39,250 nucleotides of DNA, from positions 876 through 40,125 of the forward strand of contig JAPPFO010000090.1 in the NCBI GenBank assembly GCA_028875175.1, in the 5' to 3' direction. Within the stretch, counting starts at the first letter, position 1; every line of letters starts with the position of its first letter. The translations under genes were made by a program, and so were the position numbers. The notes beneath the pieces are model-generated. The model ran no database searches. It had not been told where the DNA came from and worked only from the letters and a program-made list of their open reading frames with translations. The DNA comes from Chloroflexota bacterium. Lineage in GTDB: Bacteria > Chloroflexota > UBA11872. Shown here in pieces: positions 2,445 to 39,118 of this stretch.

Positions 2445-2455
2445 GGGCCGCTGAC

Positions 2456-5792: not shown

Positions 5793-5902
5793 CCTGCGGG
5801 TTGCACACACCCTCACGGTAGCCGATTTCGGGCGACGAACACGCGACAAGCCGCCGCCGGGCGCGTAGTCTCACCGGACGACGCGAGGGGCTCGAGACAC
5901 CA

Positions 5903-8022: not shown

Positions 8023-8067
8023 GCTCGGATACGATGCGGCAGGAGCCGCGCTCCGGGGGATGACGAC

Positions 8068-9486: not shown

Positions 9487-10902
9487 CTAATACGCACCCC
9501 GACCACGCGCCACGACCCAGAGGGTGCGCAGCAGGATGGTGAGGTCGAGCAGCGGCGAGTAGTTCTGGATGTAGTAGAGGTCGTATTCGACGTTTTCGTG
9601 CAGAGGGAGTTCGCTGCGGCCGCTTACCTGCCACCAGCCGGTGATCCCCGGAAGCACCGCCAATCGCTGTCGCTGCCAGGACTCATACTGCTCAACGACC
9701 CACGGGAGTTCCGGGCGCGGCCCAACCAGGCTCATTTCGCCGCGCAGCACATTCCACAGTTGGGGGAGTTCGTCGAGACTGGTCCGGCGAAGGAAGCGGC
9801 CGACGCGGGTCACGCGCGGATCGTTCAGCGGTTTGTACACCGCGTTGACGGCAGCGCCACCCTGGAGAGCGGCTTCCTGCCGGCTCTCGGCATCCGGGAC
9901 CATCGTGCGTAGCTTGAACATGGTGAACATTCGGCCGGTCTCACCAACGCGTCGCTGAGCGAAGACGACCGGACGTCCACCGTCCAGGAAGACGGCCAGC
10001 GCCAGGACTGCGAGCACCGGCGCCATCAGCACGAGCGAGACGCTGGCCAGAACCAGATCGAATACTCGCTTGACGAATCGATCGAATCCCGTGATTACGG
10101 GCGCACGCACGCTGATCAGAGGCAGGCCCCACACGTCCTCTGCCATGGCCCGGCCGGCCATGAGATGAAACACATCGGGGACCAGCCGGACTCTGACAGG
10201 AACGCTGTCCAGTGCCACAACTATTTCGCGAATCCGCTCGTGGGCGTGCATTGGCAACGCGATCAGGACGTCGTCCACTTCATAGCGGTCAATCAGATTC
10301 TCGAGCTCGTTACTTGCTCCCAGCACCGGGGCCTCGTGGATCTCTTCGCCGCGTTTATCCGGATCGTCGTCGGCGAATCCGATGACCTGGAATCCGGACC
10401 AGGGACGTTCACGAATCATGGCCGCCACCCGTTCGCCGACCGGTCCGGCGCCGACCACCAGCACCCGAGTCGCGCCGCGGCCGGAGATGCGACGACTGCG
10501 CATCACGAGGTTGAGTAGCCACCGGAGATTGATAAGCAGCAGCGCATCCAGGGCAATGAAGTAAAGGAACAACAGTCGCGAGAGGAATTCGACTTTGAGG
10601 ACAAAGAAGGCCGCAAAAAGGACGACGGTGGCAAAGATGATGGCCGGAATCAGTACGCGGATTTCGTCCACGACTCGCAGCAGCCGCCGGTGGTCGTAGA
10701 GATGGACCATGCGGAAGAAGAAGGCCCAGACGAATCCGACGACCACGTACTCGCGGACGGTGAGCCAGGAGAGCAGGCTGGCATCGCCAGCGCCGATCGG
10801 CAGGGTATGCCGCAGGACATCCGCCAGGAAGAGGGCCAGCAGCGTGAGCGCGATATCGACAACGGCCAGGGCGCCGCCAAAGAGACGCGCGCGCTCCCTC
10901 AC
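9487..10902 (-). CDS. Initiating polyprenyl-phosphate glycosylphosphotransferase (WbaP/EPS-type bacterial sugar transferase)
   Basis: ORF track 9487..10902. N-terminal TM helices, central Rossmann-like VLVVGAGPVG domain, C-terminal sugar-transferase signature KRVFDLVLAS...MFKLRTM...NDPRVTRVGRFLRRTSLDELPQLWNVLRGEMSLVGPRP. Confidence 0.9.
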   Translation of the reverse strand: MRERARLFGGALAVVDIALTLLALFLADVLRHTLPIGAGDASLLSWLTVREYVVVGFVWAFFFRMVHLYDHRRLLRVVDEIRVLIPAIIFATVVLFAAFFVLKVEFLSRLLFLYFIALDALLLINLRWLLNLVMRSRRISGRGATRVLVVGAGPVGERVAAMIRERPWSGFQVIGFADDDPDKRGEEIHEAPVLGASNELENLIDRYEVDDVLIALPMHAHERIREIVVALDSVPVRVRLVPDVFHLMAGRAMAEDVWGLPLISVRAPVITGFDRFVKRVFDLVLASVSLVLMAPVLAVLALAVFLDGGRPVVFAQRRVGETGRMFTMFKLRTMVPDAESRQEAALQGGAAVNAVYKPLNDPRVTRVGRFLRRTSLDELPQLWNVLRGEMSLVGPRPELPWVVEQYESWQRQRLAVLPGITGWWQVSGRSELPLHENVEYDLYYIQNYSPLLDLTILLRTLWVVARGRGAY

Positions 10903-10919
10903 CTCAGCGCTCCCTCACC
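10891..10919. repeat. Perfect 13-bp direct repeat (GCGCTCCCTCACC x2, 3-bp spacer) straddling a gene junction
   Basis: 10891-10903 and 10907-10919 are identical. On the coding (minus) strand this reads GGTGAGGGAGCGC-TGA-GGTGAGGGAGCGC, encoding ...LVRER-stop and then GTG-start M-R-E-R. Confidence 0.9.
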
Positions 10920-12055
10920 AGTTCGCGGTATACCAGTTCGGTTGCCCGGGCCATCGCCTCGGCGTCGTGATAGACCGCCACGGCCGCATGAGCCTCCGTT
11001 GCAAGCGTGCGAGCCTCATCCGAGTGTGTCAACAACCGCAGCGTCGCGGCGGCGGCGGCGGGAATGTCACCTGGTTTGACCAGGAGTCCGGTGCGCTCGT
11101 GCTCGATGAGATCGGTCGTTCCGACGGCGCGGGCGGCAACAATTGGAACTCCGGCGGTCATGACCTCCATGATCGAGTAGGGCACACCCTCCCAGCGGGC
11201 CATGTGCAGGTACACATCCAGCGCCGTGAGCAGCGTGCGGGCGTTGGTCACAAATCCCGGAAGCGACGTTGCCTTGTGGACGTCGAGTTCCCGAAGGCGA
11301 TCCTCCACCTGCGTACGCAGTTCACCGTCGTTGGTCCAGAGAAACCGAGCGTCCGGGCGCCGGCGGTAGATCGCCGCGAATGTCTCCGCAATGTCGAACG
11401 GCGCCTTCTGTTCGGTAAACCGAGCCGTGGTGCCGACAATCGGCGCGTCAGCTGGCAGACCGAGACGTCGGCGGGCCTCCGCGCGCGGCAGAGGCTCGAA
11501 CGGCGCAAACGTGAGAGGGACTTTGCGAACTTTGCGCGGCTGAACGATTTCGCCCGCCACCTGTCGTTCGCCCTCTGAGAGCGCGATGAGCGCTGACGTT
11601 GCACGTCCCAGCATTGCTTCCAGCCAGCGCAAGGGCGCACGTGCGATGGGCGAGGCGAAGTTGAGGAAGTAGAACCCATGCGGCGTATGAACAATCCGGG
11701 CACCCGGCGCGAGCATGGCGGCCACGCGGCCAACGACGCCCGCCTTGGTGCTGTGGGTGTGCACGATGTCGTAGCGACCACGGTGGATCAGCCGCACGAG
11801 CGCCCAGGTCGCGCGCCAATCGTCGATCGGTCGAATGGCGCGAGTCATGGGCACGACGTGCAGCTGCACGTCCAGTGCCGACATGTCGTCGAAAAACGAG
11901 GTGTCGCCGCGAGGCTCGGAGCGAACACGGGGACACGCCACTTCGAAGTGGAAGGACGAGCGATCGGAAGCGGCCGCCAGATCGAGCAGATGGCGCTTGG
12001 TGCCGCCAATCGTGGCCTCCATGACCTGGAGAACTCGAATCGGACGGCGAGCCAT
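10904..12055 (-). CDS. GT4-family glycosyltransferase
   Basis: ORF track 10904..12055. IRVLQVMEATIGGTKRH N-terminus and C-terminal E-x7-E region RWEGVPYSIMEVMTAGVPIVA...GLLV. Confidence 0.85.
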   Translation of the reverse strand: MARRPIRVLQVMEATIGGTKRHLLDLAAASDRSSFHFEVACPRVRSEPRGDTSFFDDMSALDVQLHVVPMTRAIRPIDDWRATWALVRLIHRGRYDIVHTHSTKAGVVGRVAAMLAPGARIVHTPHGFYFLNFASPIARAPLRWLEAMLGRATSALIALSEGERQVAGEIVQPRKVRKVPLTFAPFEPLPRAEARRRLGLPADAPIVGTTARFTEQKAPFDIAETFAAIYRRRPDARFLWTNDGELRTQVEDRLRELDVHKATSLPGFVTNARTLLTALDVYLHMARWEGVPYSIMEVMTAGVPIVAARAVGTTDLIEHERTGLLVKPGDIPAAAAATLRLLTHSDEARTLATEAHAAVAVYHDAEAMARATELVYRELVRER

Positions 12056-12063
12056 CGGCAGCG

Positions 12064-13038
12064 CTAGCGCAGCACCGCCTCTTGCATCCAGGCGTACTCC
12101 GCCGCGATGCCCTCGTGGATGGTTGTTGACGGATCAAAGCCGAGCACGCGACGCGCCCTGGAGGTATCGGCCTGGCTGTGAAGCTGGTCGGCGGGATGCG
12201 CCTCGGCGTAGATACGCTCGGCCGGCTTGCCGGCGACCTGCTCCATCGTGCCGATCAGTTCGTTGACCGATGCCGTGGGGCCACTGCCGATGTTGAAAGT
12301 CTCGCCGATGGGTAGCGCATCAAGCACCCGTACCTGGGCGTCAACCGCGTCGGCCACGTAGGTCAGTTCCCGCGTCTGCTCGCCGTCGCCATAGATTGTG
12401 ATCGGCTTGCCGGTGGCTATAGCCTTGAGTCCGATGTGCACGAGCATGTCGGGCCGCTGGCGCGGACCAAACAGGGTGTAGTAGCGAAGGACGACCACCG
12501 GCAGACCGAACAGCCGGTGATAAGAACTGAGCAGGTGCTCGTCCAGCAGCTTGGTCATCGCGTAAAACGACCGCGGTTCGAGTGGATGGTCTTCGGGCGT
12601 GGGCATCCTGGGATTGAAGCCGTAGATCGAGGATGTCGAAGCAAAACTGAAGAGCTTCACGCCTGCGCGCAACGCAGCGTCGGCCAGCCGTTGCGTTGAG
12701 CGGCTGTTGTCCTGCATGTACCGCTGGAAGTTGGTGGGCGTCCAGCCTTCGCGGACGCCGGCTCGGGCCGCCAGGTGAAAGACGTACTGCACGCCGCCGA
12801 GCACTTTGTCGAGGTCGAGGTCGGCGTCCAACAGGTGGGCCGGCACGAAGTCGAAACCCTCGTGCTGCCGGAGTGAGTCAAGATTCGCCTGTTTCTGGTC
12901 GAGGTCGTAGCTGTCGGTCATGCCATCCAGACCGACGACTCGATGGCCTCGCGCTAACAGCGACTCGCAGAGATGGGACGCAATAAACCCGGAAGCCCCA
13001 GTGACAAGTGTTCCAGGGCGGCCGTTGGCCTCTGGCAT
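12064..13038 (-). CDS. Extended-SDR NAD-dependent sugar epimerase/dehydratase
   Basis: ORF track 12064..13041 (TTG). ATG 13038 is the adjacent codon. LVTGASGFIASH (TGxxGxxG), ASTSSIYG, YAMTK (YxxxK). Confidence 0.85.
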   Translation of the reverse strand: MPEANGRPGTLVTGASGFIASHLCESLLARGHRVVGLDGMTDSYDLDQKQANLDSLRQHEGFDFVPAHLLDADLDLDKVLGGVQYVFHLAARAGVREGWTPTNFQRYMQDNSRSTQRLADAALRAGVKLFSFASTSSIYGFNPRMPTPEDHPLEPRSFYAMTKLLDEHLLSSYHRLFGLPVVVLRYYTLFGPRQRPDMLVHIGLKAIATGKPITIYGDGEQTRELTYVADAVDAQVRVLDALPIGETFNIGSGPTASVNELIGTMEQVAGKPAERIYAEAHPADQLHSQADTSRARRVLGFDPSTTIHEGIAAEYAWMQEAVLR

Positions 13039-13057
13039 CAAAGCCCCGCGTGAAGAA

Positions 13058-13076
13058 AGCGCGCCAGCCGCGCGCT
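13058..13076 (-). promoter_or_regulatory. GC stem-loop in the 69-nt intra-operon gap, next to an AT-rich TATACT element
   Basis: AGCGCGC (13058-13064), 5-nt loop, GCGCGCT (13070-13076). On the minus strand TATACT lies at 13087-13082, about 44 nt upstream of ATG 13038. Function (attenuator, processing site or internal promoter) not resolvable. Confidence 0.2.
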
Positions 13077-13107
13077 GCGAGAGTATATCGGCGAGCCCTT
13101 CGCCACG

Positions 13108-14244
13108 TTACGCGGCGGCATCGCGAATGACGGTCGCATAGAGGGCGCGCGTGGCGGCACGCATGCCCTCTAAATCGAACGTCTCGGCCGCATGTCGACG
13201 CGCAGCGGAACCCAATCGCAGCCGGCGCTCGCTATCGAGCAGCGTTGCCGTCAAGGCGGAGGCCAGGGCTTGCGCATCACCCTGGGGAGTCAACACGCCG
13301 GTCTGGTTGTGCTCCACGATTTCAGGAACGCCCCCAACGGCCGTCGCCACGACTGGCCGACTTGCCATCGCGGCTTCCATGACCACAAGGCCCAGTCCTT
13401 CCCAGTCAGACGCCAGCACGACCAGGTCGGCGGCGGCCATCAGGTTCGGTATGTCGGCGCGCACACCCAGCCAGCGCACCGCATCGCGCAGATCCAAGTC
13501 GTCGGTGAGTTGGAGCAACCCGGCCCGATAGGCGGGGCCTCCCAGCTGGGTCTCGCCGGCGCAGAGCAATTGGGCGTTACCGAGCTTTCGGCGCACCTGG
13601 GCGAACGCCCGCAGGAGTACATCGTGCCGCTTCTGCGGATCGAGGCGCGCGGGGCACAGCACCAGCGGTACATCTGCCCCGATGCCAAGCTCCCGACGCG
13701 CGGCCGCCCGATCCAGGCCGCTGAACGGCCCGGAATCCAGGCCATACCGAATGACCTCAATCCGATCTCTGGGGACTCCGAGTTGCTGATTCGTCCAACC
13801 CGCGACCGCCTCCGAAATGGCGATTGTGCGCCGCGTGGGACGGGTAGCCAGCGCATGGAGGGCCCGTGCCGACGAGGACTCGAGACGAGCTTCGATGTTG
13901 TGCTTGGTGGACACGATGGCGCGAACGCCGACCGCCCGCGCTGCCAGCGCACCGTACATGTCGGCGCGCAGGAGGTGTGTGTGCACGAGCGCATATCGCC
14001 CGCGCCTGATGAGCGCCGCCAGACGGGGCAGCCGCACGGCGCCAAACGGTCCGGCCATCGGGATATGGGCTATGCGTTCGACGCATGCCTCAAACTCCGG
14101 GCGCAGGTCGTGGTCGCGAAAGTAAACCAGGTCAATATCGGCGAACTCGCGTAGACCGGGCAGCAATTCAACGAGATGGCGCTGCGCCCCACCGACCGCG
14201 AGCGACGTGACTATCTGCAGAACGCGCAACCGGCTCCTGGTCAC
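13108..14244 (-). CDS. GT4-family glycosyltransferase
   Basis: ORF track 13108..14244. LRVLQIVTSLAVGGAQRH, SDWEGLGLVVMEAAMASRPVVATAVGGVPEIV. GTG start overlaps the upstream stop (GTGA). Confidence 0.85.
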   Translation of the reverse strand: MTRSRLRVLQIVTSLAVGGAQRHLVELLPGLREFADIDLVYFRDHDLRPEFEACVERIAHIPMAGPFGAVRLPRLAALIRRGRYALVHTHLLRADMYGALAARAVGVRAIVSTKHNIEARLESSSARALHALATRPTRRTIAISEAVAGWTNQQLGVPRDRIEVIRYGLDSGPFSGLDRAAARRELGIGADVPLVLCPARLDPQKRHDVLLRAFAQVRRKLGNAQLLCAGETQLGGPAYRAGLLQLTDDLDLRDAVRWLGVRADIPNLMAAADLVVLASDWEGLGLVVMEAAMASRPVVATAVGGVPEIVEHNQTGVLTPQGDAQALASALTATLLDSERRLRLGSAARRHAAETFDLEGMRAATRALYATVIRDAAA

Positions 14245-15461
14245 GTGCGGGCGGTCAGCAAAGCGTCGTAGCGGGCCAGCGTCTGCTCGACTTGCCGCTG
14301 GAGGGAGAATGTGGAGGCCGCGCGTTGGCGCGCAGCCCTACCCAGCGACCGTGCGTGCTCGGCATCGCCCACGATCAGGTCGATCCGGTCGGCCAGGGCC
14401 AGCGGATCGGTGGGATCCACGGTGTATCCCCAGGCGCCATCCGCCACGATTTCGGGACCCGCGCCAAGCGTGGAGGCTATGGCCGGCCGTCCGGCCGCCA
14501 TTGATTCGATGATCGTCAGGTTGAACGGGTCTGGATAGGTCGAGGGGGCCAACGTCACGGTCGCGGCGGCGTAGGCGTCGCGAAGCGCCGCTGGCTCCAT
14601 CCATCCGGGCAGGAGCAAGCGTTCGCCCACACCCAGCTCGTCGGCCAGTCGCCGGAGTTTCGGCGCGTAACGCGGGTTTTCGCCAGCGATTACCAGGCGC
14701 AGGTCCGAATGCCGGGAACGTGCCAGCGCGTGCAGCGCCGCCTCCGCGCCCTTCTCGCGCGAGACGCGGGCCGCCAGCAGCGCCAGCGGGTCTCCGTCCA
14801 GCCCGTGCGTCGACCGAAACGCCGCCCCATCGCCGTTACCCCACCAGTCCACGTCCACTCCGTTATAGACAACCTCGGCGCCCCCGAAACCGTTGGCGCG
14901 CAGGGCGGTCTTCAGCGTTCGACTGATGGCAAACAGGTGGTCCACATGCTTGGACATGTGCTGGTCGATGACCACGTTGCGTGCCGGATTCCAGCGGAAC
15001 CGCTGGCATTTGGCGCAGTTGAACCAGCGCTGGCGAAAGTCCACCGGGCCGCCGGTGCAGATGAACTTGATGCAGCAGAACAGCAGATAGTCGTGGGCGG
15101 TGTAGAGCACCGGCACACCCAGGCGATCGGCTGCCGTAAGCGATGCAAACGACAGGTGCTGATGCACGTTGTGGGCATGCACGACGTCAGGATTGAAGTC
15201 GGCTAATTCACGACGGACGCCCGGCAACACCATCGGATTGGCCATCGCCACCGTGTTGCGAAACCGCTCCGGATAGCGAGATCGCAGCCGGCGAACGCGA
15301 ACACCGTCCTGGTCACGGTGCGATCCGGCCCCAGACGTGGTGGCAATCACGCACACGTCATGAGCAGCCTGGACGAAGGCGCCAGCCAGGCGTTCAACCA
15401 CGACCCCGGCCCCGCCGCGATTCTCAGGGGGATAGGTGTCGGCAAGGAGGGCGATGCGCAT
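14241..15461 (-). CDS. GT4-family glycosyltransferase with Cys-rich insert
   Basis: ORF track 14241..15461. MRIALLADTYPPENRGGAG, STYPDPFNLTIIESMAAGRPAIAS. Cys cluster FCCIKFICTGG...NCAKCQ at nt 15006-15077. Confidence 0.85.
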   Translation of the reverse strand: MRIALLADTYPPENRGGAGVVVERLAGAFVQAAHDVCVIATTSGAGSHRDQDGVRVRRLRSRYPERFRNTVAMANPMVLPGVRRELADFNPDVVHAHNVHQHLSFASLTAADRLGVPVLYTAHDYLLFCCIKFICTGGPVDFRQRWFNCAKCQRFRWNPARNVVIDQHMSKHVDHLFAISRTLKTALRANGFGGAEVVYNGVDVDWWGNGDGAAFRSTHGLDGDPLALLAARVSREKGAEAALHALARSRHSDLRLVIAGENPRYAPKLRRLADELGVGERLLLPGWMEPAALRDAYAAATVTLAPSTYPDPFNLTIIESMAAGRPAIASTLGAGPEIVADGAWGYTVDPTDPLALADRIDLIVGDAEHARSLGRAARQRAASTFSLQRQVEQTLARYDALLTART

Positions 15462-15493
15462 GTGGAGCGGCCCGACGGTTCGACGGAGTGATT

Positions 15494-16564
15494 CTAGGCG
15501 GTGTACGCCGCCAGGCAGCGTTCGGCAACCGCGGACCAGGTAAAGCGGGCTACGACGTGGTCGCGGGCTGCCTGGCCCTGCGTTTGGGCGTGCTGAAGCG
15601 AAGTGGTGAGCGGCGTCAGCTCGCGGCGGAGGGCGTCGGGATCGCTCGGCGGCACGGTCGCGCCACCGACGGACGGGATGATCTCGGGCATGCCGGCCAC
15701 GTCCGAAACAATCGCTGCGGTCCCGCAGGCCATGGCTTCGAGCGGCGCCAATCCGACGAGTTCCGGCAACGCCTGTCGCCGTCCGAGGTAGTCCTCATAG
15801 ACCGACGGCATGACGAAGGCACAGGCCGATCGCAGGGCGGAGATCACCTCGAAGTCCGAAGCTCCCAGGTGGATCCGCACCGGACGGGACGCGGCCTCCG
15901 ATCGAACGAACTCAAGATAGTCGGCGTCGTAGGGGCGCCCGTAAATGTCGAGTGAGGCGCCGACAGGTAGTCCTCGAATCGCAGTCTCGATGCCCTTGTG
16001 GGGCAACAGGCGCCCCACATAGACGACCTGGCCAAGCGTCTTTTTTGTACCGGGCGAGTATTTGGCCGTATCAACGCCTGCGTAGATTACTTCCGTCCGG
16101 CGTCCGACGTAGGGGAGCGTTGCGGCGGCGAATTCGCTCTGCGCCAACTGTCCGTCGATCCAGCGACCGATCCGCAAACGGCGAACCCAGTTCACGCCAC
16201 CGCCACCGTGATCGGTGACATAGACGCGCTTGCCGAGCGGCCGGCCGTTCAGTGCGGCCAGCGCCGTGAGACCGGACCTCGCCTGGTGGCAGTGGACAAC
16301 ATTCGCCCAGCCCAGGGCTCGAAGAAACCCGGGACCGATGGCGTCGTAGGCTCGGCCGCGAAGCTGCCTCCAGGTTCGCTGGACCTCGATGTCGAACCCG
16401 CTGACATGCCGGGTTCCTGGCGGGCCGCCGAATGCGACCAGTCGGGTGGGCGTCTGTTGTCGCATGGCGATTGCGAGCTCCAGCGGATAACGCTCGCCGC
16501 CGCCGCGCACCGACTCGTCGCCGAACCAGGTTGGCGACAGATGCAGGACTCGTAGCTCACTCAC
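15494..16564 (-). CDS. GT4-family glycosyltransferase
   Basis: ORF track 15494..16837. The first 91 codons overlap the upstream methyltransferase gene and are Ala/Pro/Arg-rich. GTG 16564 gives a GTGA overlap with that gene's stop and an N-terminus (M)SELRVLHLSPTWF typical of GT4. C-terminal PSVYEDY...APLEAMACGTAAIVSDVAGMPEI. Confidence 0.8.
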   Translation of the reverse strand: MSELRVLHLSPTWFGDESVRGGGERYPLELAIAMRQQTPTRLVAFGGPPGTRHVSGFDIEVQRTWRQLRGRAYDAIGPGFLRALGWANVVHCHQARSGLTALAALNGRPLGKRVYVTDHGGGGVNWVRRLRIGRWIDGQLAQSEFAAATLPYVGRRTEVIYAGVDTAKYSPGTKKTLGQVVYVGRLLPHKGIETAIRGLPVGASLDIYGRPYDADYLEFVRSEAASRPVRIHLGASDFEVISALRSACAFVMPSVYEDYLGRRQALPELVGLAPLEAMACGTAAIVSDVAGMPEIIPSVGGATVPPSDPDALRRELTPLTTSLQHAQTQGQAARDHVVARFTWSAVAERCLAAYTA

Positions 16565-17379
16565 GCAAGCCGCTCGGCCACGATGAGATAGCCCCCGGGG
16601 TCGCGCACCTCTCGCCGAAATGGCCGCCACAGGAGAGCCGACCACAGGCCAAGCCAGAGCGGCATGGGCAGGAGCCGCCGCCGGTGGAGTCCGCGGAACC
16701 AGTCCAGCACGCGCCGACCGCCAACTCGTCGGACCATCAGTTCGTCCAGCCGCCGCCAGGTTCGCTGGGTTTCGGCCGGGAGATGTCCCCGGCTGGCAAC
16801 GATGGTCAGCCCGCGCTCGGCCAGCCGTTCCGTCCACTCTTCCAGCGACCGATAGTGGTAGTGACCCAGCCGAGCGTTCGTCGACGCCAGCGCGGCGTTC
16901 CCCGAGTCGCGCTCGATTCGCTCGGCAAATGCCGGTGCCGGAACGGTGAATACCAAACGACCGCCGGGCTGGAGCACGCGCGCGGCTTCCGTCACGGCGT
17001 CCAGATCGCTCGGGATGTGTTCCAGCACGCTATGGCTGTAGACCGCGCCGTAGGAGGCGGACGCGACTGGTAGTCGCGTGCCGTCGGCGCGCATGACGGC
17101 TCGATACACCCCTGAGGCTTTTGCGACGCGAGCCTCATTGGCGACGAGCTCAAGCCCGTCCACCGGCCAGTGGGACCGCAGCACCGAGCGCGCGACTTCG
17201 CCGGTGCCGCAGCCCAGGTCGAGGACGGGTGTGGGAAACGTGATGTCACGCAGCATGGCGAACTCGGTCGCCCGCCAGAGCGCCACAGCCGGCTGATGCG
17301 GATGGGCGCGCAGCGCCAGCCGCAGAACATCCCGGTCGCTCCTGGCCACGAGCGCCGTTGGGAAACCACTGTCAGCCAT
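16561..17379 (-). CDS. Class-I SAM-dependent methyltransferase
   Basis: ORF track 16561..17466. ATG 17379 (MADSGFP...) chosen because the longer form overlaps the upstream gene; it leaves an 8-nt overlap ATGGCTGA. VLDLGCGTGEVARS, YGAVYSHSVLEHIP, RVLQPGGRLVFTVP. Confidence 0.8.
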   Translation of the reverse strand: MADSGFPTALVARSDRDVLRLALRAHPHQPAVALWRATEFAMLRDITFPTPVLDLGCGTGEVARSVLRSHWPVDGLELVANEARVAKASGVYRAVMRADGTRLPVASASYGAVYSHSVLEHIPSDLDAVTEAARVLQPGGRLVFTVPAPAFAERIERDSGNAALASTNARLGHYHYRSLEEWTERLAERGLTIVASRGHLPAETQRTWRRLDELMVRRVGGRRVLDWFRGLHRRRLLPMPLWLGLWSALLWRPFRREVRDPGGYLIVAERLA

Positions 17380-18421: not shown

Positions 18422-18428
18422 TGTCCGT

Positions 18429-24806: not shown

Positions 24807-24808
24807 CC

Positions 24809-26617: not shown

Positions 26618-26621
26618 GGCC

Positions 26622-30650: not shown

Positions 30651-30710
30651 TGCTCGGACGCTAGCACCGGGCCACGGACGCGACAACGCCGCGAATTGCG
30701 CTCGCGTGAC

Positions 30711-30726
30711 GGCGGGGCGCCCCGCC
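30711..30726 (-). other. Perfect 16-bp GC palindrome (stem-loop) just downstream of the radical-SAM gene
   Basis: GGCGGGGCGCCCCGCC equals its own reverse complement. It lies 11 nt after stop 30738, inside the 87-nt gap that is the largest break in the minus-strand array. No U-tract. Confidence 0.4.
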
Positions 30727-30737
30727 CCACCTGCCGA

Positions 30738-31859: not shown

Positions 31860-32086
31860 GAGCTAACGGCTTCCTCGTGCCTCGGGGGAATCGCGTCTTC
31901 CCACAGCATGTTGGGAATCCCGTCCTCGACCCTGTATCGATAGCCGCAAACTGTACAGACGAGAAAGTCGCCCTTGATGCGCAGTACGCCGTCATCGCGC
32001 GGATGATCGTCGTTCACGCAGCGCAGGATCGCCAGGAAGTCGTCTGGAATGAGCGGCGGCGCGGACGTCGCGTCCGAATCAGCCAT
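31856..32086 (-). CDS. Trm112/YcaR-like (UPF0434) mini-protein, 76 aa
   Basis: ORF track 31856..32086. FLAILRCV...LVCTVCGYRYRVEDGIPNMLWEDA matches the Trm112-type zinc-ribbon-like pattern, with the first CxxC knuckle degenerate. AAGGGAG about 13 nt upstream of the ATG. Confidence 0.7.
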   Translation of the reverse strand: MADSDATSAPPLIPDDFLAILRCVNDDHPRDDGVLRIKGDFLVCTVCGYRYRVEDGIPNMLWEDAIPPRHEEAVSS

Positions 32087-32115
32087 TAGTGTCGCCTGCT
32101 CCCTTCTCTTGGAAG

Positions 32116-34374
32116 CTAGAGCATGAAATGTAGCGTGTCAAAGCTAATCAACAGCGCGGCAAACGCGCCAATCGCAGCAACGCGCACTGACCGCACACGG
32201 CGCCCAGATGGCCAGATGCGGCCGGTCAGACCAACCCAAGCCCCGAGCACGGCGAATTGAAGTACCAATAGCAGTCCGCCCACCCAAATAATAAGCATCG
32301 GGTAGGCAAGGAAACCCTCGACGAGGCTCAAGGACCAAAAGTCCAGTCCAAGCCCGTTTTCAGGATGCGACGGAACGGCCTCAATACCGAATCGTGACCA
32401 GGGCGTTCGGCTCAGGGCGTCGGCCAGCCAGTCAGTGCGGTCCGGTGCAAGGAGGTTCATGGCGTCCGCGCGCAGCAGCCAGGCGTGCGCCAGCAAGGGC
32501 GAAAACTGGTAGGCATAAAGGACTGCCGCGTAATCGCCTTCGGGCTGAATCGACGACCACGGCTGGTAGTCAGCACCGCCGTAGATTGCGCCCTTGAGCG
32601 TTACGGAGCCGGCGACTTGTTGCTGGAAGAGGTCCAGGTAGCCCGCGAAGTCCTTGGACACGCCCATGAACTGCACGCCGGCGCTAATCAGCACCGCACC
32701 GGCCAGGGCCGCGCCAGGCAGCCAGGTTCGCGCCCGCTCGACTACCCGTTCGAAAAGCGGCGCACCTACGATCACCAGCAGCGGCAACGCTGGCACCAGG
32801 TAGCGCGGTCCCCAGGCGTTACCGCCGTACCAGACCTGTTTGCGGCTGTAGAGCAACGCATACGCAACCGGAATCGCCAGGAATACGAGCGAACGCCAGC
32901 CATGGCGGCGCACAAACCAGGGCAGTGCGGGCAGCGAGACGAGAAGGATGGGGTTGTACCAGAGCACACCCTTGCCCCAGCTTGTGATCAGTCCGCCAAG
33001 CCCCAGGCCAAACGGCAGCTCCAGCCAGCCGCGCTGCAGGCCGCCGATAAGTTCGTGCACGTACAGGAAGCGGAAATCGAATAGCGTGGCCGCGGCCACC
33101 AGTGCCGGAACCAGCACGACCAGAAACGGGGCCAGGAACAGGAAGACCGGCCGCACCGATTGCCTCAGCGTTGTGCGCCAGGAACCGCCCGAATGTTCGC
33201 CCACGACCAGTCCCGCCACGAGAATGGGCACGGTTATGACGCTGACGTACTTGGTCAGCACCGCCGCGAACGCCGCCAGGCCGGCCAGGGCCACGAAGCG
33301 CAGCCGCCGGGTTGAGCCGTAGACGAGGGAAAGCCACACCGCCGCCAGAAGAAACGTCGTCACCAGCGGTTCGGAGAAGTCGAACTTCGCGTAGGGCCAG
33401 GCCATCGTGCCGACGGCGTAGATCAGCGCGCTGACGACGGCCACCCGCTCGCCGTATTGCAGCCGTCGCAGGATTCGAAAGACCAGCACCACACCAACGG
33501 CCGTAGCCAGCGCGTTGGCCGCCGCCACCCAGATGCGGCGGAAGAACTCGCGATTCTGGCGCTCCGACCAAACTCGTCCGACCCCCGGCCCATCAAGCCA
33601 CGTCCCATCGGGCGTACGCAGCGCCAGACCGTCCACGTAAAAGTTCCCGGTGGGCTGCAGGTAGCTGACTCGCGCCGATGCGAGTTCGCGCGGCGGATCG
33701 AATCGCCACGTCGATCCGTAGTAGTACGCGCGTGCATTGCCGATCTGGCGAGCCACCGGTGGCGGTTGCTCATGCTGAATCCGTGCGCGCACGTCGCCCC
33801 GGTCGTAGGCCCATTCGGCGGTCTCAATGCCGACGCGGATCGGGTGTTCAGTCGTGGTTCCGGCGGCATCGGTGAGATGAAGCCGCGCGATCTCCGTCCC
33901 CTGGGAGAACCCGGCGCTAAGTCCGCTGTGCGACAACAGGACCAGTCTGTCGTAGCTGCCGGGTTCGATTCCAAGCTCGATTTCGTCGGTCACCTCGGGC
34001 CCCCGCGATCCGCCCAGCGGGGGAAAGTTCACCAGCAACACGTCGTGCTCGCCCAACGGAATCCGGTCTCGCTGCGGAGCCGCCTCGGCTAAGGGCTCCG
34101 CGAATGCAACGAATGGCATGAACGCCGTGGGCAAGCCCACGCCCCAGCGGGTGAAATTTCGGTTTTGGTCGCGCAGATAGGCGTGGCCATGATCGACGAT
34201 GACGCTCTTCGCCATCTCGAACGCAAAGGTGCCGTCGGCGCTGTAGCCGCCGCCATTCCGTGCCGCTCCCATGCTCAGCGCGTACAGCGTGAAGGCAAAT
34301 GCAAACAGCAGAAAGGCGGGACGCGCCTGCGCCCAGCGCATCAGGCGCCGCGTGCGCGTCACGCGACGGCCCAC
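32116..34374 (-). CDS. Large polytopic GT-C-like (ArnT/PMT-type) membrane glycosyltransferase candidate with ~180-aa soluble insert
   Basis: ORF track 32116..34374. Basic N-terminus, TM1, loop YSADGTFAFEMAKS, TM2, soluble insert (nt ~33541-34089), then at least 10 TM helices to the C-terminus. Start GTG 34374 or ATG 34341. Confidence 0.6.
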   Translation of the reverse strand: MGRRVTRTRRLMRWAQARPAFLLFAFAFTLYALSMGAARNGGGYSADGTFAFEMAKSVIVDHGHAYLRDQNRNFTRWGVGLPTAFMPFVAFAEPLAEAAPQRDRIPLGEHDVLLVNFPPLGGSRGPEVTDEIELGIEPGSYDRLVLLSHSGLSAGFSQGTEIARLHLTDAAGTTTEHPIRVGIETAEWAYDRGDVRARIQHEQPPPVARQIGNARAYYYGSTWRFDPPRELASARVSYLQPTGNFYVDGLALRTPDGTWLDGPGVGRVWSERQNREFFRRIWVAAANALATAVGVVLVFRILRRLQYGERVAVVSALIYAVGTMAWPYAKFDFSEPLVTTFLLAAVWLSLVYGSTRRLRFVALAGLAAFAAVLTKYVSVITVPILVAGLVVGEHSGGSWRTTLRQSVRPVFLFLAPFLVVLVPALVAAATLFDFRFLYVHELIGGLQRGWLELPFGLGLGGLITSWGKGVLWYNPILLVSLPALPWFVRRHGWRSLVFLAIPVAYALLYSRKQVWYGGNAWGPRYLVPALPLLVIVGAPLFERVVERARTWLPGAALAGAVLISAGVQFMGVSKDFAGYLDLFQQQVAGSVTLKGAIYGGADYQPWSSIQPEGDYAAVLYAYQFSPLLAHAWLLRADAMNLLAPDRTDWLADALSRTPWSRFGIEAVPSHPENGLGLDFWSLSLVEGFLAYPMLIIWVGGLLLVLQFAVLGAWVGLTGRIWPSGRRVRSVRVAAIGAFAALLISFDTLHFML

Positions 34375-34380
34375 TGAAAG

Positions 34381-35967
34381 CTACGGCGCGTCATCGACGA
34401 GCTCGCTCACGAGCGCGTTGAGCCGCTCGCGGAAGGCCGGCGTATTGAATCGCTCGCTCGACTCGCGGGCGCGTCTCGCCATCCCCGCCCGCATATCGAG
34501 GTCTTGCACCAGACGCCACGTCCGCTCGCGCAGTTCATCGGTCGAGGACCAGAGAAAGCCGTCCTCGCCGTCGCGCACCAGTTCCGGCGGCCCACCTTGA
34601 TTCAGCACCACCGGCACAGCTTGATTGGCCATGGCTTCCACCACGGAGATTCCGAAGTGCTCAAACTTGACCGGATTGCGTGCTACACGCTCGCCGTATC
34701 CGGCCGCGTGCCAATAGACCTGGGCTTCAGCGTAAAGGCGCTGCAAGTCCGCGAATGGCGCATCGATGGCGAATTCAATCGGGTGGCCGGCCGCACGCCG
34801 CCGCAACTCGTCCGTATAAGCAAGGTCAATGTCTCGCCGGCTCTGATGGCCCGCCAAACGCAGCGTCCAGCCCTGCAGGCCATCGCGGCACATGCGGATG
34901 AACTGGTCGATCATCACCCCGTGCTTCTTCTCATGCGTGCCTCGAAAAAAGCGGCCCACGCTCAGGATCGTTCGTGTCTTGGCCCGCGCCATGGCCCAGC
35001 TCGTGTCAACCGGAGGGTAGAGCAGCGGCCCGCTGCGCCCCCAGTACACCTCCATCCACGCGCGGCTGTACTCCGAGATCGGACAGATCATGTCGTAGGT
35101 ATCCAGGTGGGCCAGGGAATAGAACGCCGGCAGCCCTTCCAGCCGCAGCCCCAGCTCACGAAACATCCGGCGGAAAAGCAGTTCGTAGAGGAAGTGGCGT
35201 GGGTGACGAACGCGCACGTCCGTGACGGCAAGCCCGACTTCACGGTTGTCGGCCTCGGCAATCCTGTCGGTGGGGTTGAACGTTGGCGACTCCAGCATCA
35301 AGTCAACAAGACCGTCCCGCACAAACTGCCGGTCTACGTCGATCCTCCACGCCTCGAAGGCTCCCGGGCGCGGTGCAAACGAGCGTTTGGCGATCACCGT
35401 ACCGCCCGCCAGACAGCGCACTGGCAGGTCGGCGCCTGGCTGAAAATTCCCGCCCACGATTTCGATCGGGACGGGCTTCCGGCCGCCCGGCACCCGCATC
35501 TTGATACACGCCCGGTCGGTCGCGTACCGAAACCAGCCGCGACCAAGTTCTTGCACGTCGTAGAAGCCGTCGCTCCACTCCGGCAGCAAGAGCTCCCGCG
35601 TCAGGAAGCGCCCGATGGCCTGTCGCATTCGCGCCGGCCAGCTGCGATCGATCGGGGATGGAAAAAGCACCAGCATCAGGCTGTGCCGCGCTGCCGACGG
35701 CTGATTCGTCATGAACGAGGCATTAACGAACAGGTCGTACTCACGCGTGACTTCGGCAAACCTGTTCGGGGGCAAGGCCGGAATCACGCGGATGCCGATC
35801 CCGTCGAGGTCAATGTGGAGCGCCTCGGCCAGCTCGTCGCGCCCAATCGGGCGGTGGGTAATGAGTTCGGTATCGAACCGCTCGGCCAGCACACGGGCGG
35901 CCATTACCGCGTGCCGCTCGCCGCCGCCTTTCTGATGCAGCCAGCGGTTGTAAACCCCCGCTCTCAC
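34381..35967 (-). CDS. GT4-family glycosyltransferase carrying an internal ~120-aa beta-rich insert
   Basis: ORF track 34381..35967. C-terminal FEHFGISVVEAMANQAVPVVLNQGGPPELV...GFLW. Insert at aa ~132-254. GTGA overlap with the upstream GT2 gene. Confidence 0.8.
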   Translation of the reverse strand: MRAGVYNRWLHQKGGGERHAVMAARVLAERFDTELITHRPIGRDELAEALHIDLDGIGIRVIPALPPNRFAEVTREYDLFVNASFMTNQPSAARHSLMLVLFPSPIDRSWPARMRQAIGRFLTRELLLPEWSDGFYDVQELGRGWFRYATDRACIKMRVPGGRKPVPIEIVGGNFQPGADLPVRCLAGGTVIAKRSFAPRPGAFEAWRIDVDRQFVRDGLVDLMLESPTFNPTDRIAEADNREVGLAVTDVRVRHPRHFLYELLFRRMFRELGLRLEGLPAFYSLAHLDTYDMICPISEYSRAWMEVYWGRSGPLLYPPVDTSWAMARAKTRTILSVGRFFRGTHEKKHGVMIDQFIRMCRDGLQGWTLRLAGHQSRRDIDLAYTDELRRRAAGHPIEFAIDAPFADLQRLYAEAQVYWHAAGYGERVARNPVKFEHFGISVVEAMANQAVPVVLNQGGPPELVRDGEDGFLWSSTDELRERTWRLVQDLDMRAGMARRARESSERFNTPAFRERLNALVSELVDDAP

Positions 35968-37325
35968 AACATCTCAATGAACGGATGCAGCTCACGCCCG
36001 TCCAGCGGAGCCAGGCGAGCCTCACGACGCCGACACTGCCACGTGCGCGACCCCACAGTTGCGGCGCTCGTTAGCGCCAACAAGCGCGCAAAGGCCAAAC
36101 GTGCCGCCTCCGCGTTACGCATACCGAGCCCGCGGCGGGCGTCGCCTGCCCCGAATTTCACGGCGGCGGCCGCGTGTTGGGCCACCCACGCCCACGGTGC
36201 GTTCTTGCCCAGCATTCGGAGCTTGCCGAACTCCACATTGCGCACGAACCCTGGGGACCACTCGCGGCTAAGAGCGGCATGTTCATGGCGCACAACCGAG
36301 CTGGGCTCGTACCAAAAGCGCCAGCCACGGCGACGGGCGCGCCAGGCGAGATCGGCATCCTCGTAGTACATGAAGATACCGTCGTCCAGATAGTCCAGCG
36401 CATCCAGCATTGACCGACGGTAGAGAACCGCTGCCCCTTTGGGCGCAAAGATCTCACGAGCCTGGCTGAAGCCCGGCGAGTCCCAGGCCGACCAGGGCAC
36501 GCCTGCCAGCAATTGCGTCCCCCGGTCGCGCATTGAGCCGTCGTCGAGCGGCGCGATGCCCGCACACTCGATAGCCGGCCGCGCCAGGCCAGCCACCAAT
36601 TCGGCCTTGAAATCAAGCTGAACCGTCGTGCGATCACTTCCAATCGGCACCTCGCCCAGCAGATGGTCACCCGCGTGTACGGTGATGGGCACTTTCGCCC
36701 GTCCGTCGCCTGCCGCCACGTCGAGGCGTAGCCACGTCGACGCCCGATCGACGGGTACCGCAAGGGCTGTGCAGCCATCGGTCCAGCGAAACGCCTGGCC
36801 AGACACGTTCAGTTCTACACCATGAGCGCCGCCGGTCACCTCCGCCAACCCGGCCGTCGTCTCCGCGCCAAAGAGTTGGACACCCAGCCGTCGCCGGTCA
36901 GGCGGGGGCGGTTCAAATGTGGCAGTGGTCAGCCTGACGGGAATCCGATCGTGCTGATGCAGCAGCTTGGCCCCTACGCCGCCGGCGATCGGGTCGCCAT
37001 TGAGGCGTGTGACCAGGGGCTCCAGCCAGCCCGGCTCGACCTCCGTGTCTGGATTGAGAAGTCCCACGTAGGGCTCGTCCGCCTCGCGCAATGCCCGATT
37101 GTTGCCGCGCGAGAATCCCAGATTTGCTCCGTTTTCGATCAGCTCTACTTCTGGATACGACTGCTCGATTCGCGCCGGCGATCCATCGCTTGACGCGTTG
37201 TCGACCACCGTTACTCGTAGATCCGAGTAGCGGGTGGCCAGCAATCGCTCAATACATCGCTCGATCCGCCCGGCGCCGTTGTAGTTCAGCACAACGACGC
37301 GGACGGGCGGATAGTCGCTGGTCAT
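35964..37325 (-). CDS. GT2-family glycosyltransferase (WbbL/rhamnosyltransferase-like core) with internal ~125-aa insert
   Basis: ORF track 35964..37325. VRVVVLNYNGAGRIERCIERL, VTVVDNASSDGS, NLGFSRGNN, LLNPDTEV, AAVLYRRSML, FMYYEDADLAWRARRRGW. Insert at aa ~126-250. ATGA overlap with the upstream ABC gene. Confidence 0.85.
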   Translation of the reverse strand: MTSDYPPVRVVVLNYNGAGRIERCIERLLATRYSDLRVTVVDNASSDGSPARIEQSYPEVELIENGANLGFSRGNNRALREADEPYVGLLNPDTEVEPGWLEPLVTRLNGDPIAGGVGAKLLHQHDRIPVRLTTATFEPPPPDRRRLGVQLFGAETTAGLAEVTGGAHGVELNVSGQAFRWTDGCTALAVPVDRASTWLRLDVAAGDGRAKVPITVHAGDHLLGEVPIGSDRTTVQLDFKAELVAGLARPAIECAGIAPLDDGSMRDRGTQLLAGVPWSAWDSPGFSQAREIFAPKGAAVLYRRSMLDALDYLDDGIFMYYEDADLAWRARRRGWRFWYEPSSVVRHEHAALSREWSPGFVRNVEFGKLRMLGKNAPWAWVAQHAAAAVKFGAGDARRGLGMRNAEAARLAFARLLALTSAATVGSRTWQCRRREARLAPLDGRELHPFIEML

Positions 37326-39028
37326 TCCACCCGGATAGAGCGCACGGCAATGCCCAGCGGGCGGGTGTCCGAATCCAGCCCCACTTCGGCCGGCACCAGC
37401 GCGTCGTCAACCTCGATCACCAACTCGTGAGTCTTCGGCGCCGTCACCGGATCCAGCGGAATCACGATGTCCTCGAAGTCCATGCCGTGCAGCCTGAAGG
37501 TGGCGATGTGCCGCCCATCCACGCTGACTCGGCCCTGGGCTTGGGCGCGCCCATGCAGTGGACGACAGGCCGACAGAATCAAGGCGCCCTGGCCAACGTC
37601 CTGACGGAGGTAGGCCACGGAGCGCTCGCTGGTCCAGCGCACTCGAGGCGGCCAGTTTTCCGCCGGGAACCAGCCTTCGCCCAGCCATTCAGCGTCAGGC
37701 GCGCCCATCGCCAGCTTCCCGGGCGGCGGCGTCCAGAACGGACCGGCAGGTTCCGAAAGCATGTCCGGCTGAGCGATCGGCGCCGACGAGGAGCGAAGCT
37801 CATCCGTGGACGGTGCAACGGCTATTCGCCACTGCGACGGCACCACGGCCACGCCGCGCTGGGTGCCCGTCGCCTTCCCCACAAAGAGCGTGATGGCATT
37901 GGGCCACAGGTGGTAGGGATGCAGGCGATCGTCGCCCGGCCACGCGCCCAGCGACAGTTGATAGCTGCCCGGCCCCAGCGGCAGTGGTCCAAGCGAGCAC
38001 TCCACGCGAGTGCGTCCTGGCTGCACGCCGATAGGTCCCCGAGTCGAGGCCGTGGAGGTCTCGTGCATCAGCAAACCGTCGCTGCGACGCACCGCGCAGC
38101 CAACCACCACATCATCGAGATACGCATCTGACTCAAGCTCCATTTGCAGCCGCACAACGCCGCCCGGCAGATAGGCGTAGCTCTCCGTTCCAGTCGCCCC
38201 GTCCGTGGCCACGGCCGCCTGGATGCGAAACGTGTCGCCGCCGAGGTCGGGTGTCGTCTCACTGGGCCCCGTTGGCACCTCCGCTGCTGCGCCCGCCATG
38301 TGCTGTAGGTACTGCTGGATCACGTCGCGCGGGTCCCCCAGAGCGCGGATCTGCCCGCCGTCGATCCAGAGCACCCGGTCGCAGAACCGTCGCACCTGGA
38401 TCGGATCGTGTGACACAAAGACCAACGTGCGCCCACGGGCCTTGATGTCGGCCAGCGCCTCGTAACACTTGGACGTAAAGCGTGCGTCCCCGACCGCCAG
38501 CACTTCGTCGATCAGCAGGATGTCTGGATCAACATTGATGGCGATGGAGAATCCGAGCCGCATAAACATGCCGGACGAGTAGTGGCGAACCGGCGTGTCG
38601 ATAAAGCGTTCCAACTCGGCGAAGGCGACGATGCGGTCGTAGAGCTGCCGCATCTCGTTACGCTCGATACCGAGGAATGAACCGTTCAGGAAAATGTTCT
38701 CGCGACCCGTCAGGTCCGGGTGCATCCCCGCGCCCAGTTCAAGCAGGCCGAAGACCTTGCCGCTCGTCAGGACTTCACCCGCCGTTGCTTCGATCGTGCG
38801 CGCCAACAGCTTCAGAATCGTGGTCTTGCCAGACCCGTTGGGGCCGATGATTCCAAGGGTTTCGCCTTCGGCGACCTGCAGATCAACGCCATCGAGCGCC
38901 CAGAATTCTTCGTGCTCGATCCGTCGTCGGCCAAGCAACGCCAACGCCATGCCCTGCCACGTGCGTGCGGCCTCGTGGCGGATCCTGAAACGCTTGCGGA
39001 TCCCACGAAGTTCAATGGCGGCTGGCAT
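37322..39028 (-). CDS. Wzt/TagH-type polysaccharide-export ABC transporter ATP-binding protein with two-part C-terminal extension
   Basis: ORF track 37322..39028. Walker A GPNGSGKTT, signature YSSGM, Walker B ILLIDEVLAVGD, H-loop FVSHD. These are followed by a Wzt_C-like beta-sandwich (FRIQAAV...GPGSYQLSLGA...ITLFV) and a further ~120-aa module. First gene of the minus-strand array. Confidence 0.85.
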   Translation of the reverse strand: MPAAIELRGIRKRFRIRHEAARTWQGMALALLGRRRIEHEEFWALDGVDLQVAEGETLGIIGPNGSGKTTILKLLARTIEATAGEVLTSGKVFGLLELGAGMHPDLTGRENIFLNGSFLGIERNEMRQLYDRIVAFAELERFIDTPVRHYSSGMFMRLGFSIAINVDPDILLIDEVLAVGDARFTSKCYEALADIKARGRTLVFVSHDPIQVRRFCDRVLWIDGGQIRALGDPRDVIQQYLQHMAGAAAEVPTGPSETTPDLGGDTFRIQAAVATDGATGTESYAYLPGGVVRLQMELESDAYLDDVVVGCAVRRSDGLLMHETSTASTRGPIGVQPGRTRVECSLGPLPLGPGSYQLSLGAWPGDDRLHPYHLWPNAITLFVGKATGTQRGVAVVPSQWRIAVAPSTDELRSSSAPIAQPDMLSEPAGPFWTPPPGKLAMGAPDAEWLGEGWFPAENWPPRVRWTSERSVAYLRQDVGQGALILSACRPLHGRAQAQGRVSVDGRHIATFRLHGMDFEDIVIPLDPVTAPKTHELVIEVDDALVPAEVGLDSDTRPLGIAVRSIRVE

Positions 39029-39118
39029 CTAAGACCTGATTTCCCCGAGTGGACCTAGACTAGCCAGGTGCCGAGAGTGATCGGCCTGCGACCATCCACC
39101 GACTGAGGGGCACGGGAG

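Follow-up and report, generated by a model that had tools for sequence, protein, structure and literature searches.

A conserved Chloroflexota locus in which two glycan-assembly modules, one predicted to be ABC-dependent and one Wzx-dependent, probably lie head to tail

The 39,250-nt stretch of DNA analysed in this work (hereafter the window; contig JAPPFO010000090.1 of the Chloroflexota assembly GCA_028875175.1) has a GC content of 66% and carries, at positions 9487-39028, one continuous run of 23 minus-strand genes that appear to be devoted to glycan assembly. Their products comprise one phosphoglycosyltransferase (PGT) of the Bac_transf family, ten family 4 glycosyltransferases (GT4), one CgeB-type glycosyltransferase, one family 2 glycosyltransferase (GT2), a Wzx flippase, the ATPase Wzt of an ATP-binding cassette (ABC) transporter, two GT-C glycosyltransferases of the YfhO and PMT_2 types, a short-chain dehydrogenase/reductase (SDR), a methyltransferase, a hexapeptide acetyltransferase, a radical S-adenosylmethionine (rSAM)/SPASM enzyme, a Trm112-like ORF and a 616-aa toroid protein. 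From comparison with related loci, we consider it highly probable that the region consists of two separable glycan-assembly modules placed head to tail. Module A (30738-39028, together with a wzm gene just outside the window) has the order wzm-wzt-GT2-GT4(~530 aa)-GT-C-Trm112-rSAM, and module B (9487-30686) holds nine GT4 genes, the CgeB-type glycosyltransferase, the acetyltransferase, the toroid protein, YfhO, Wzx, the methyltransferase and the SDR, with the PGT gene last. The reason why we read the region as two pathways is that its halves occur apart in relatives, lie ~1 Mb apart on one chromosome and have other genes inserted at their junction.

Plus-strand open reading frames (ORFs) across 9487-39028 are antisense shadows of the minus-strand genes in this high-GC sequence, and the minus-strand genes have a third-position GC content (GC3) of 0.72-0.86. 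By longest-ORF boundaries, on which all gap and overlap figures rest, only two gaps exceed 35 nt (13042-13107, 66 nt; 30687-30737, 51 nt), and adjacent genes often share 4-nt overlaps. A Pfam scan backs each family assignment along the run: ten proteins exceed the Glycos_transf_1 cut-off, one more (the CgeB-type protein) matches Glyco_trans_1_2 alone, and hydrophobic segments mark four polytopic proteins, every one of them assigned (PGT, Wzx, YfhO and PMT_2). The single-strand run, the two gaps and the families called by eye in the initial annotation were thus borne out, as was its count of 23 genes, although its itemised list summed to 22 and lacked the 76-aa Trm112-like ORF. No equivalog-level NCBIfam assignment was obtained for any transferase, the SDR, the methyltransferase or the acetyltransferase, so the sugar identities cannot be inferred, and the earlier judgement that product and acceptor are not deducible still holds after annotation. 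Promoter and terminator scans found sites no commoner than in shuffled sequence; the 90-nt divergent region 39029-39118 is likely the promoter region of the wzt operon. We also singled out a GC hairpin with a perfect 5-bp stem (GCGCG-GCTGG-CGCGC, with TTTCTT after it; 13059-13073, minus strand), because it falls in one of only two long gaps, that between GT4b and the SDR gene.

Relatives were found by scanning one genome per species for the 616-aa protein, which gave 29 loci with identities of this protein from 49% to 97%, all 29 in metagenome-assembled genomes (MAGs) titled Chloroflexota or Chloroflexi, several of them complete chromosomes of 3.0-3.8 Mb. Comparison of the window proteins with these loci by tblastn, over a span of ~22 kb from GT2 to GT4d, revealed that the gene order is kept in all 29 species genomes down to ~50-60% protein identity. 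The loci differ in order at one point alone: in 13 of the 29 (for example L013:18188-19387 and L029:~18200-19309), an extra GT4 of ~400 aa separates Wzx from the CgeB-type gene. This GT4 is absent from the window lineage, which implies that the module B product would differ by one sugar between lineages. Such a conserved order would fit a core envelope locus, not a hypervariable serotype locus.

Module A occurs by itself in loci L038 and L039 (Wzt 54% and 50% identical), where it lies beside pyrimidine, purA and pyrG genes and is followed by unrelated genes; the protein cluster of L039 includes Tara ocean sequences. Module B stands alone in L040 (YfhO 43% identical), in the order GT4s, acetyltransferase, 616-aa protein, YfhO, Wzx, CgeB-type gene, methyltransferase, GT4s and SDR. 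On chromosome OY282448.1 both are present but ~1 Mb apart: L025, which holds module B, lies at 0.59-0.62 Mb, and L042, which holds module A, at 1.61-1.64 Mb. The junction corresponds in the window to the 51-nt gap at 30687-30737, and exactly at this point, between the rSAM gene and the first GT4 of module B, unrelated antisense genes lie in L037 (an Amidohydro_2 gene, L037:18383-19213, minus strand) and L028 (a 672-aa DNA-methyltransferase-like gene, L028:2690-4708, minus strand, within an insertion of 3.6 kb). Twenty-seven related loci extend as far as the junction, and in 25 of them the modules are directly adjacent, the exceptions being L028 (insertion) and L025 (unlinked). The initial annotation had left open whether the run makes one long glycan or represents two fused pathways; these splits favour the second and disfavour the first. 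A more distant locus, L043 (Wzt 45% identical), pairs wzm-wzt-GT2-GT4 with a different, 1032-aa YfhO-type GT-C. In the same locus, a toxin-antitoxin-like DUF4258/DUF2283 pair (L043:13143-13656) sits between the module A GT2 and GT4.

The first module A gene inside the window encodes Wzt (37322-39028; minus strand, as are all genes of the run), which matches ABC_tran and Wzt_C. Residues 35-400 align with full-length Aquifex aeolicus Wzt (PDB 8dku, 7k2t; E=6e-68), the carbohydrate-binding domain included, while residues 385-568 (~180 aa) are an extra C-terminal domain; this three-domain form is common among Chloroflexota-labelled proteins, down to 38% identity. The GT2 that follows (35964-37325, 453 aa; Glycos_transf_2, E=7e-22) is soluble, with no transmembrane (TM) segment and with an insertion in its GT-A domain; its NCBIfam matches are of the MftF, PgaC and EpsD types, and no GtrB, ArnC or DPM1 model of NCBIfam was matched. 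After GT2, here and in every other module A examined (L037, L038, L039, L042, L043), comes the extended GT4j (34381-35967, 528 aa), with Glycos_transf_1 at residues 330-502. The PMT_2/ArnT-like GT-C (32116-34374, 752 aa; PMT_2 at 29.1 bits against a cut-off of 26.1) has 10 hydrophobic segments and a ~240-aa domain after TM1; its mean column identity is 71% among sequences whose Wzt is only ~50% identical, and D47, E53 and D61 after TM1 are invariant. Pfam scans of Wzt residues 385-568, loop 39-280 of the 752-aa protein, the GT2 insertion and the GT4j N-terminus gave no match.

The 23rd gene (31856-32086) encodes a 76-aa Trm112-like zinc-ribbon protein that is also called in public contigs and overlaps the rSAM start by 4 nt. 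It matches Trm112p of Pfam at E=0.005 and Trm112_arch of NCBIfam at E=3e-7, under the cut-off, and precomputed Trm112p matches exist in L038 and L039. We considered this ORF as the precursor of a ribosomally synthesised and post-translationally modified peptide and rejected this, as it is a Trm112-like zinc ribbon (CxxC) that is kept with the rSAM gene in all full module A loci examined. The rSAM/SPASM enzyme itself (30738-31859, 373 aa; Radical_SAM and SPASM in Pfam) has BtrN and BlsE, a cytosylglucuronate decarboxylase, as weak sequence matches in the PDB; it was found in all module A loci examined other than L043, whose module A is partial. Two distant module A loci carry a further methyltransferase of 403-410 aa between GT4 and GT-C (L038:14725-15957 and L039:14682-15893); as an orthologue of the window methyltransferase it was rejected.

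The absence of Wzm noted in the initial annotation is an artefact of the window edge, because near-identical contigs carry an ABC-2 permease past the window end. Over the right-hand part of the window, six public contigs are 99.9% identical to it, and in them wzm (a 280-aa ABC2_membrane protein; L001:8482-9324) lies ~680 nt upstream of wzt, beyond position 39250; its best NCBIfam match is the galactan-export permease Wzm, under the cut-off. Between the two sits a divergent GyrI-like gene of 153 aa that is not a pathway member, whose first 44 codons make up the window's final 132 nt (39119-39250, plus strand) and which continues at L001:9449-9910. It was seen only in the 99.9% identical contigs, and wzm directly abuts wzt in the four more distant relatives in which the flank next to wzt was inspected (L037, L038, L039, L042); by this comparison, the GyrI-like gene is best read as a lineage-specific insertion. 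Beyond wzm, the extended contigs continue into the housekeeping genes pyrG, purA and the pyr operon. Of the wzm/wzy pair that had been envisaged just beyond the window, wzm is therefore present, whereas wzy was not found in the flanks.

Module B is read from GT4i (29487-30686; Glycos_transf_1, E=4e-37), its first gene, through GT4h (28360-29562, E=7e-33) and GT4g (27224-28363, E=1e-16) to a hexapeptide-repeat O-acetyltransferase (26622-27293; Hexapep, with WcaF- and Vat-type NCBIfam matches under the cut-off). The 616-aa protein (24809-26659), GT4f (23598-24887, E=4e-26), the 875-aa YfhO-family GT-C (21028-23655) and GT4e (19901-21031, E=1e-31) follow, and next come the Wzx/MOP flippase (18429-19904, 491 aa; Polysacc_synt_3, E=5e-55; 12 hydrophobic segments), the CgeB-type glycosyltransferase (17372-18532, E=9e-35) and a class I SAM methyltransferase (16561-17466; Methyltransf_11, E=1e-17), which has the same place in L040, where module B stands alone. 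The GT4d ORF (15494-16837; Glycos_transf_1 at residues 263-426) overlaps the methyltransferase ORF by 277 nt and is probably overextended at its 5' end, into that gene. After GT4c (14241-15461, E=1e-29) and GT4b (13108-14244, E=8e-38) lies the SDR gene (12064-13041, 325 aa; Epimerase, E=2e-53), whose product resembles nucleotide-sugar epimerases/dehydratases and reached no NCBIfam equivalog, GalE, RmlB, LegB and TviC all being under the cut-off. GT4a (10904-12055; Glycos_transf_1 and Glyco_transf_4) precedes the terminal PGT gene (9487-10902, 471 aa), which encodes the initiating enzyme, a polyprenyl-phosphate hexose-1-phosphate transferase of the large WbaP/WcaJ type (Bac_transf, E=5e-67, and CoA_binding_3) with 5 hydrophobic segments and 449 bits to TIGR03025 EPS_sugtrans against a cut-off of 296. 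In L040 there is in addition a 467-aa membrane protein (L040:2545-3948) with several TM segments, a central soluble region and no Pfam match; it has no counterpart in the window and might be a chain-length or polymerase-related factor.

PDB sequence searches with the 875-, 616- and 752-aa proteins gave nothing useful, and for this reason structure prediction and Foldseek were needed for the 875- and 616-aa proteins. The 875-aa protein matches PF09586 in its C-terminal part only (33.6 bits against a cut-off of 28.5), but this family is matched by 26 of 26 aligned homologues (best E=3e-22), and NCBI gives the name "YfhO family protein" to two homologue clusters that are 77% and 85% identical to it. 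Its AlphaFold2 model (pLDDT 83) has a GT-C fold followed by a beta-rich C-terminal domain, predicted from the model to be extracytoplasmic, and a final TM helix; Foldseek placed AftD and ArnT at the top, then AglB, STT3, EmbB and AftA. The acidic residue D71 after TM1 is nearly invariant among its homologues. Two natural proteins, P0088 (1358 aa, L045:7953-12029) and P0096 (1400 aa, L044:10001-14203), each fuse a YfhO-like domain of full length to a MOP flippase domain, and these gene fusions would support a direct hand-over from flippase to YfhO. Together with initiation by a PGT on undecaprenyl pyrophosphate (Und-PP), they raise the possibility that YfhO enzymes may handle more than single-sugar decoration. 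In L044 the next gene after the fusion P0096 encodes a PMT_2-type GT-C, and cytoplasmic transferases are absent from its vicinity; this GT-C was rejected as a close relative of the 752-aa protein, and the association is one of families only.

The toroid-like protein recognised by eye was confirmed as such, the AlphaFold2 model of the 616-aa protein (pLDDT 92, no TM segment) being an alpha-toroid with a beta-sandwich. Foldseek with this model returned uronate-specific lyases of families PL8/12/15/17/33 and dermatan-sulfate epimerase 1, at E values from 1e-9 to 1e-7. The family is small (143 representative clusters in 1.84 billion), with C52, H59 and C348 invariant and H55 nearly so; C52, H55 and H59 lie in the motif CPxHxxxHTGK. 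Conservation suggests that C52/H55/H59 and C348 form a putative Cys/His metal site, which would be unexpected in polysaccharide lyases with this fold. We consider an epimerase-type tailoring enzyme more likely than a degradative lyase, because the protein is predicted to be cytoplasmic and is linked to biosynthesis. In L041, a distant YfhO homologue has a 553-aa neighbour that was also considered as a relative of the 616-aa protein, and it proved to be unrelated.

Several components of known glycan pathways were looked for in the window and in the flanks examined (including the 10 kb beyond wzt), with the rest of the genome outside the Wzy search. Neither Wzy_C nor any O-antigen polymerase was matched in the 23 proteins or these flanks, and no Wzz or polysaccharide co-polymerase chain-length regulator was found there either, in agreement with what had been noted from the sequence alone; likewise, no nucleotidyltransferase or sugar dehydrogenase was matched in the window, which leaves the SDR, as first proposed, as its only sugar-activation gene. 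No WbdD-like terminator, GacI/J-like pair, rml genes or decaprenyl-phospho-arabinose genes are present in the locus, module B ending in the WbaP-type PGT instead of a GacI/J-like pair. Left of the PGT gene, the region 258-9399 (mostly plus strand) encodes only four GFO/IDH/MocA oxidoreductases, a LanC-like protein (4572-5849, minus strand), a class III aminotransferase and a methyltransferase; the 728-aa longest ORF at 258-2444 (plus strand) is probably overextended, as public calls give a short upstream gene and a 362-aa GFO/IDH/MocA protein at ~1356-2444. GFO/IDH/MocA genes also directly follow module A in L042; these enzymes might either alter sugars destined for the glycan or serve catabolism.

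We propose the following working model. It is very likely, judging from gene content, that module A is an ABC-transporter-dependent pathway. In it, the soluble GT2 and the extended GT4 would work in the cytoplasm as a polymerase pair that assembles a chain on a polyprenyl carrier, a step for which the only support is the conserved GT2 and GT4 pair beside wzt. Wzm/Wzt would then export the chain, as their family assignment indicates, and the carbohydrate-binding domain of Wzt suggests that the chain end is recognised; outside the membrane, the 752-aa PMT_2-type GT-C would act on the exported chain, and the rSAM/SPASM enzyme with its Trm112-like partner may perform a tailoring step. Module B is probably, at a lower level of confidence, a Wzx/YfhO-dependent pathway that works without Wzy. 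Here the PGT, nine GT4 enzymes and the CgeB-type glycosyltransferase would build a lipid-linked oligosaccharide of ~11 sugars, which would be methylated, acetylated and perhaps altered at a uronic acid by the lyase/epimerase-fold protein, then flipped by Wzx and transferred by the 875-aa YfhO GT-C to an outside acceptor, either en bloc or with the enzyme acting as a polymerase. Both products would be parts of one composite envelope glycan; their joining is the weakest inference and is put forward tentatively, as possible but short of probable. On balance we lean slightly towards the account as a whole, that is, two modules serving a composite envelope glycan. A more specific version, in which the Wzx-fed YfhO GT-C replaces Wzy/WaaL and moves or polymerises the ~11-sugar oligosaccharide onto the ABC-exported chain, and the resulting glycopolymer is shared by an entire clade of sponge-associated and, beyond them, marine Chloroflexota, is speculative and seems to us doubtful.

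Several points weigh against this model. No GtrB/CsbB/GacI-type synthase of undecaprenyl phosphate (Und-P)-linked sugars is encoded in the locus, its GT2 being soluble, which leaves neither GT-C enzyme with a defined donor; a gene of this type may lie in another part of the genome. Characterised YfhO enzymes take single sugars from Und-P-sugar donors and do not transfer Und-PP-oligosaccharides (PMC8035078). Neither an LCP ligase, a WaaL-type ligase nor an acceptor gene was detected in the window or the flanks examined. The 403-410-aa methyltransferase of the distant module A loci could act as a chain terminator for the Wzt carbohydrate-binding domain to read, but the window module A has no such gene, which leaves the terminator idea without a candidate there. 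The modules may be adjacent within one clade by inheritance alone, and since they are unlinked in one genome, the physical link is dispensable for function. All readings, moreover, derive from sequence.

The strongest alternative is that the locus makes two unrelated glycans, A being ABC-exported and B Wzx-dependent, whose genes are neighbours only because the clade inherited this gene order and which are biochemically unconnected. The findings that separate the modules also speak for this alternative: each is found alone in relatives (L038 and L039; L040), they lie ~1 Mb apart in OY282448.1, unrelated genes occupy the junction in L037 and L028, and each module has its own GT-C enzyme. Nevertheless, adjacency is kept in 25 of 27 junction-reaching loci although protein identities fall to ~50%, an initiating transferase is missing from module A while a PGT closes module B, and in characterised systems of Gram-positive bacteria an ABC-exported chain serves as the acceptor for a Wzx-flipped chain (PMC9574508); we regard two unconnected glycans as rather unlikely. 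Protein glycosylation, for example of an S-layer, with the YfhO or the PMT_2 GT-C acting as oligosaccharyl- or glycosyltransferase, would be compatible with two modules, and we judge it less likely still. PMT_2 belongs to the superfamily of protein O-mannosyltransferases, the 875-aa model resembles AglB and STT3, among others, in structure, the C-terminus of this protein weakly matches PgfM1 and PgfM2 of the Pgf protein-glycosylation system of Streptococcus mutans, and the best NCBIfam match of Wzx is an O-glycosylation flippase. These NCBIfam scores are, however, far under their cut-offs (22 against 1400 bits and 121 against 720 bits), the top structural matches AftD and ArnT are polymer- or lipid-directed enzymes, and no S-layer or acceptor protein gene occurs in the window or the flanks examined. 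Possibly related lineages would offer a setting for such a reading: the cultured Dehalococcoidia genus Tepidiforma has S-layers, the marine radiation of this class has lost peptidoglycan synthesis (PMC10284905), and SAR202 sponge symbionts have no peptidoglycan genes (PMC6306507). That 13 cytoplasmic transferases build one long defined glycan, exported once and then decorated, agrees with the single strand, the tight spacing and the frequent 4-nt overlaps, but is very improbable given that the halves are separate and unlinked in relatives, that the locus has two export systems, each of them complete (Wzm/Wzt and Wzx), and that GT2 and the extended GT4, never the remaining transferases, always accompany wzm-wzt.

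The preferred account of two modules contributing to a composite envelope glycan is of interest for the host lineage. The near-identical contigs belong to the MAGs GCA_028874295.1, GCA_034423535.1 and GCA_028818835.1 and to re-assemblies whose sample names lead to a sponge metagenome study, so the host is apparently a sponge-associated, uncultured member of the Chloroflexota; the closest class-labelled Wzt homologue is from a "Dehalococcoidia bacterium" at 50% identity, which is only a weak hint. The Chloroflexota envelope is debated, both as to whether it is monoderm or has atypical outer layers and as to polysaccharide or protein layers (PMC13319060, PMC7332563), and marine Dehalococcoidia-type lineages have been reported to have lost peptidoglycan (PMC10284905, PMC6306507). 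With its order conserved in 29 species over ~22 kb and its core (wzm-wzt-GT2-GT4 and a GT-C) recurring in more distant Chloroflexota, the locus is a tangible genetic lead to a major surface glycopolymer of these uncultured symbionts, and such a glycan would be the surface that the sponge host and phages encounter. If YfhO indeed replaced Wzy/WaaL, its catalysis would be of a kind new to the YfhO family, and the finding could identify an uncharacterised outer wall layer in a lineage that may lack peptidoglycan.

Known systems provide a precedent for this gene content. [quoted passage not shown] Like the present locus, Lactococcus lactis cwps (rgp and wps), Streptococcus pyogenes gac and Enterococcus faecalis epa combine an ABC-exported chain with a Wzx flippase and GT-C enzymes acting outside, the counterparts being RgpC/D or GacD/E for Wzm/Wzt, WpsG and GacK as flippases, and WpsJ, WpsI and GacL as GT-C enzymes, several of them of the PMT_2 type. 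The likeness shown is one of architecture, and there are clear differences apart from the host phylum: the Wzx side starts here with a WbaP-type PGT (Und-PP-sugar) instead of GacI/GacJ or WpsA/WpsB (Und-P-GlcNAc), it has ~11 transferases instead of 1-5, the GT-C beside Wzx is of the YfhO family, the rSAM/SPASM and Trm112-like pair and the lyase/epimerase-fold protein are added, and rml genes and an LCP ligase are absent.

Mycobacterial arabinogalactan is likewise a polymer made in the cytoplasm by GT2-type polymerases, exported by Wzm/Wzt and extended outside by GT-C enzymes, and the likeness extends to the best NCBIfam match of wzm (the galactan-export permease, under the equivalog cut-off) and the top structural match of the 875-aa protein (AftD); the Wzx flippase and the second, PGT-initiated module are particular to the present locus, which has no decaprenyl-phospho-arabinose genes. 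The ABC-exported O antigens (Escherichia coli O9a, A. aeolicus WzmWzt) share the nucleotide-binding and carbohydrate-binding domains of Wzt and its ABC-2 permease partner, and ABC-dependent O antigens can also be decorated by GT-C enzymes (PMC11127046); the locus differs from them in the extra ~180-aa Wzt domain, the lack of a WbdD-like terminator and the divergent gene that splits wzm from wzt, and Chloroflexota are reported to have neither lipopolysaccharide synthesis genes nor BAM genes (PMC13319060). A YfhO- or PMT_2-type GT-C working with a flippase is also found in the three- and four-component CsbB/GtcA/YfhO, GtrA/B/V and GacI/J/K/L systems, whose defining GT-A Und-P-sugar synthase was not found in our locus. 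In the literature searches, no paper tied a Chloroflexota locus of this kind, let alone a near-identical one, to a characterised polymer. The locus is thus a Chloroflexota version, strongly conserved and so far uncharacterised, of a composite architecture that is already known and in which the mixed export logic is not anomalous, and it extends the dual-chain logic of Gram-positive bacteria, with ABC export, Wzx and GT-C enzymes, to another phylum.

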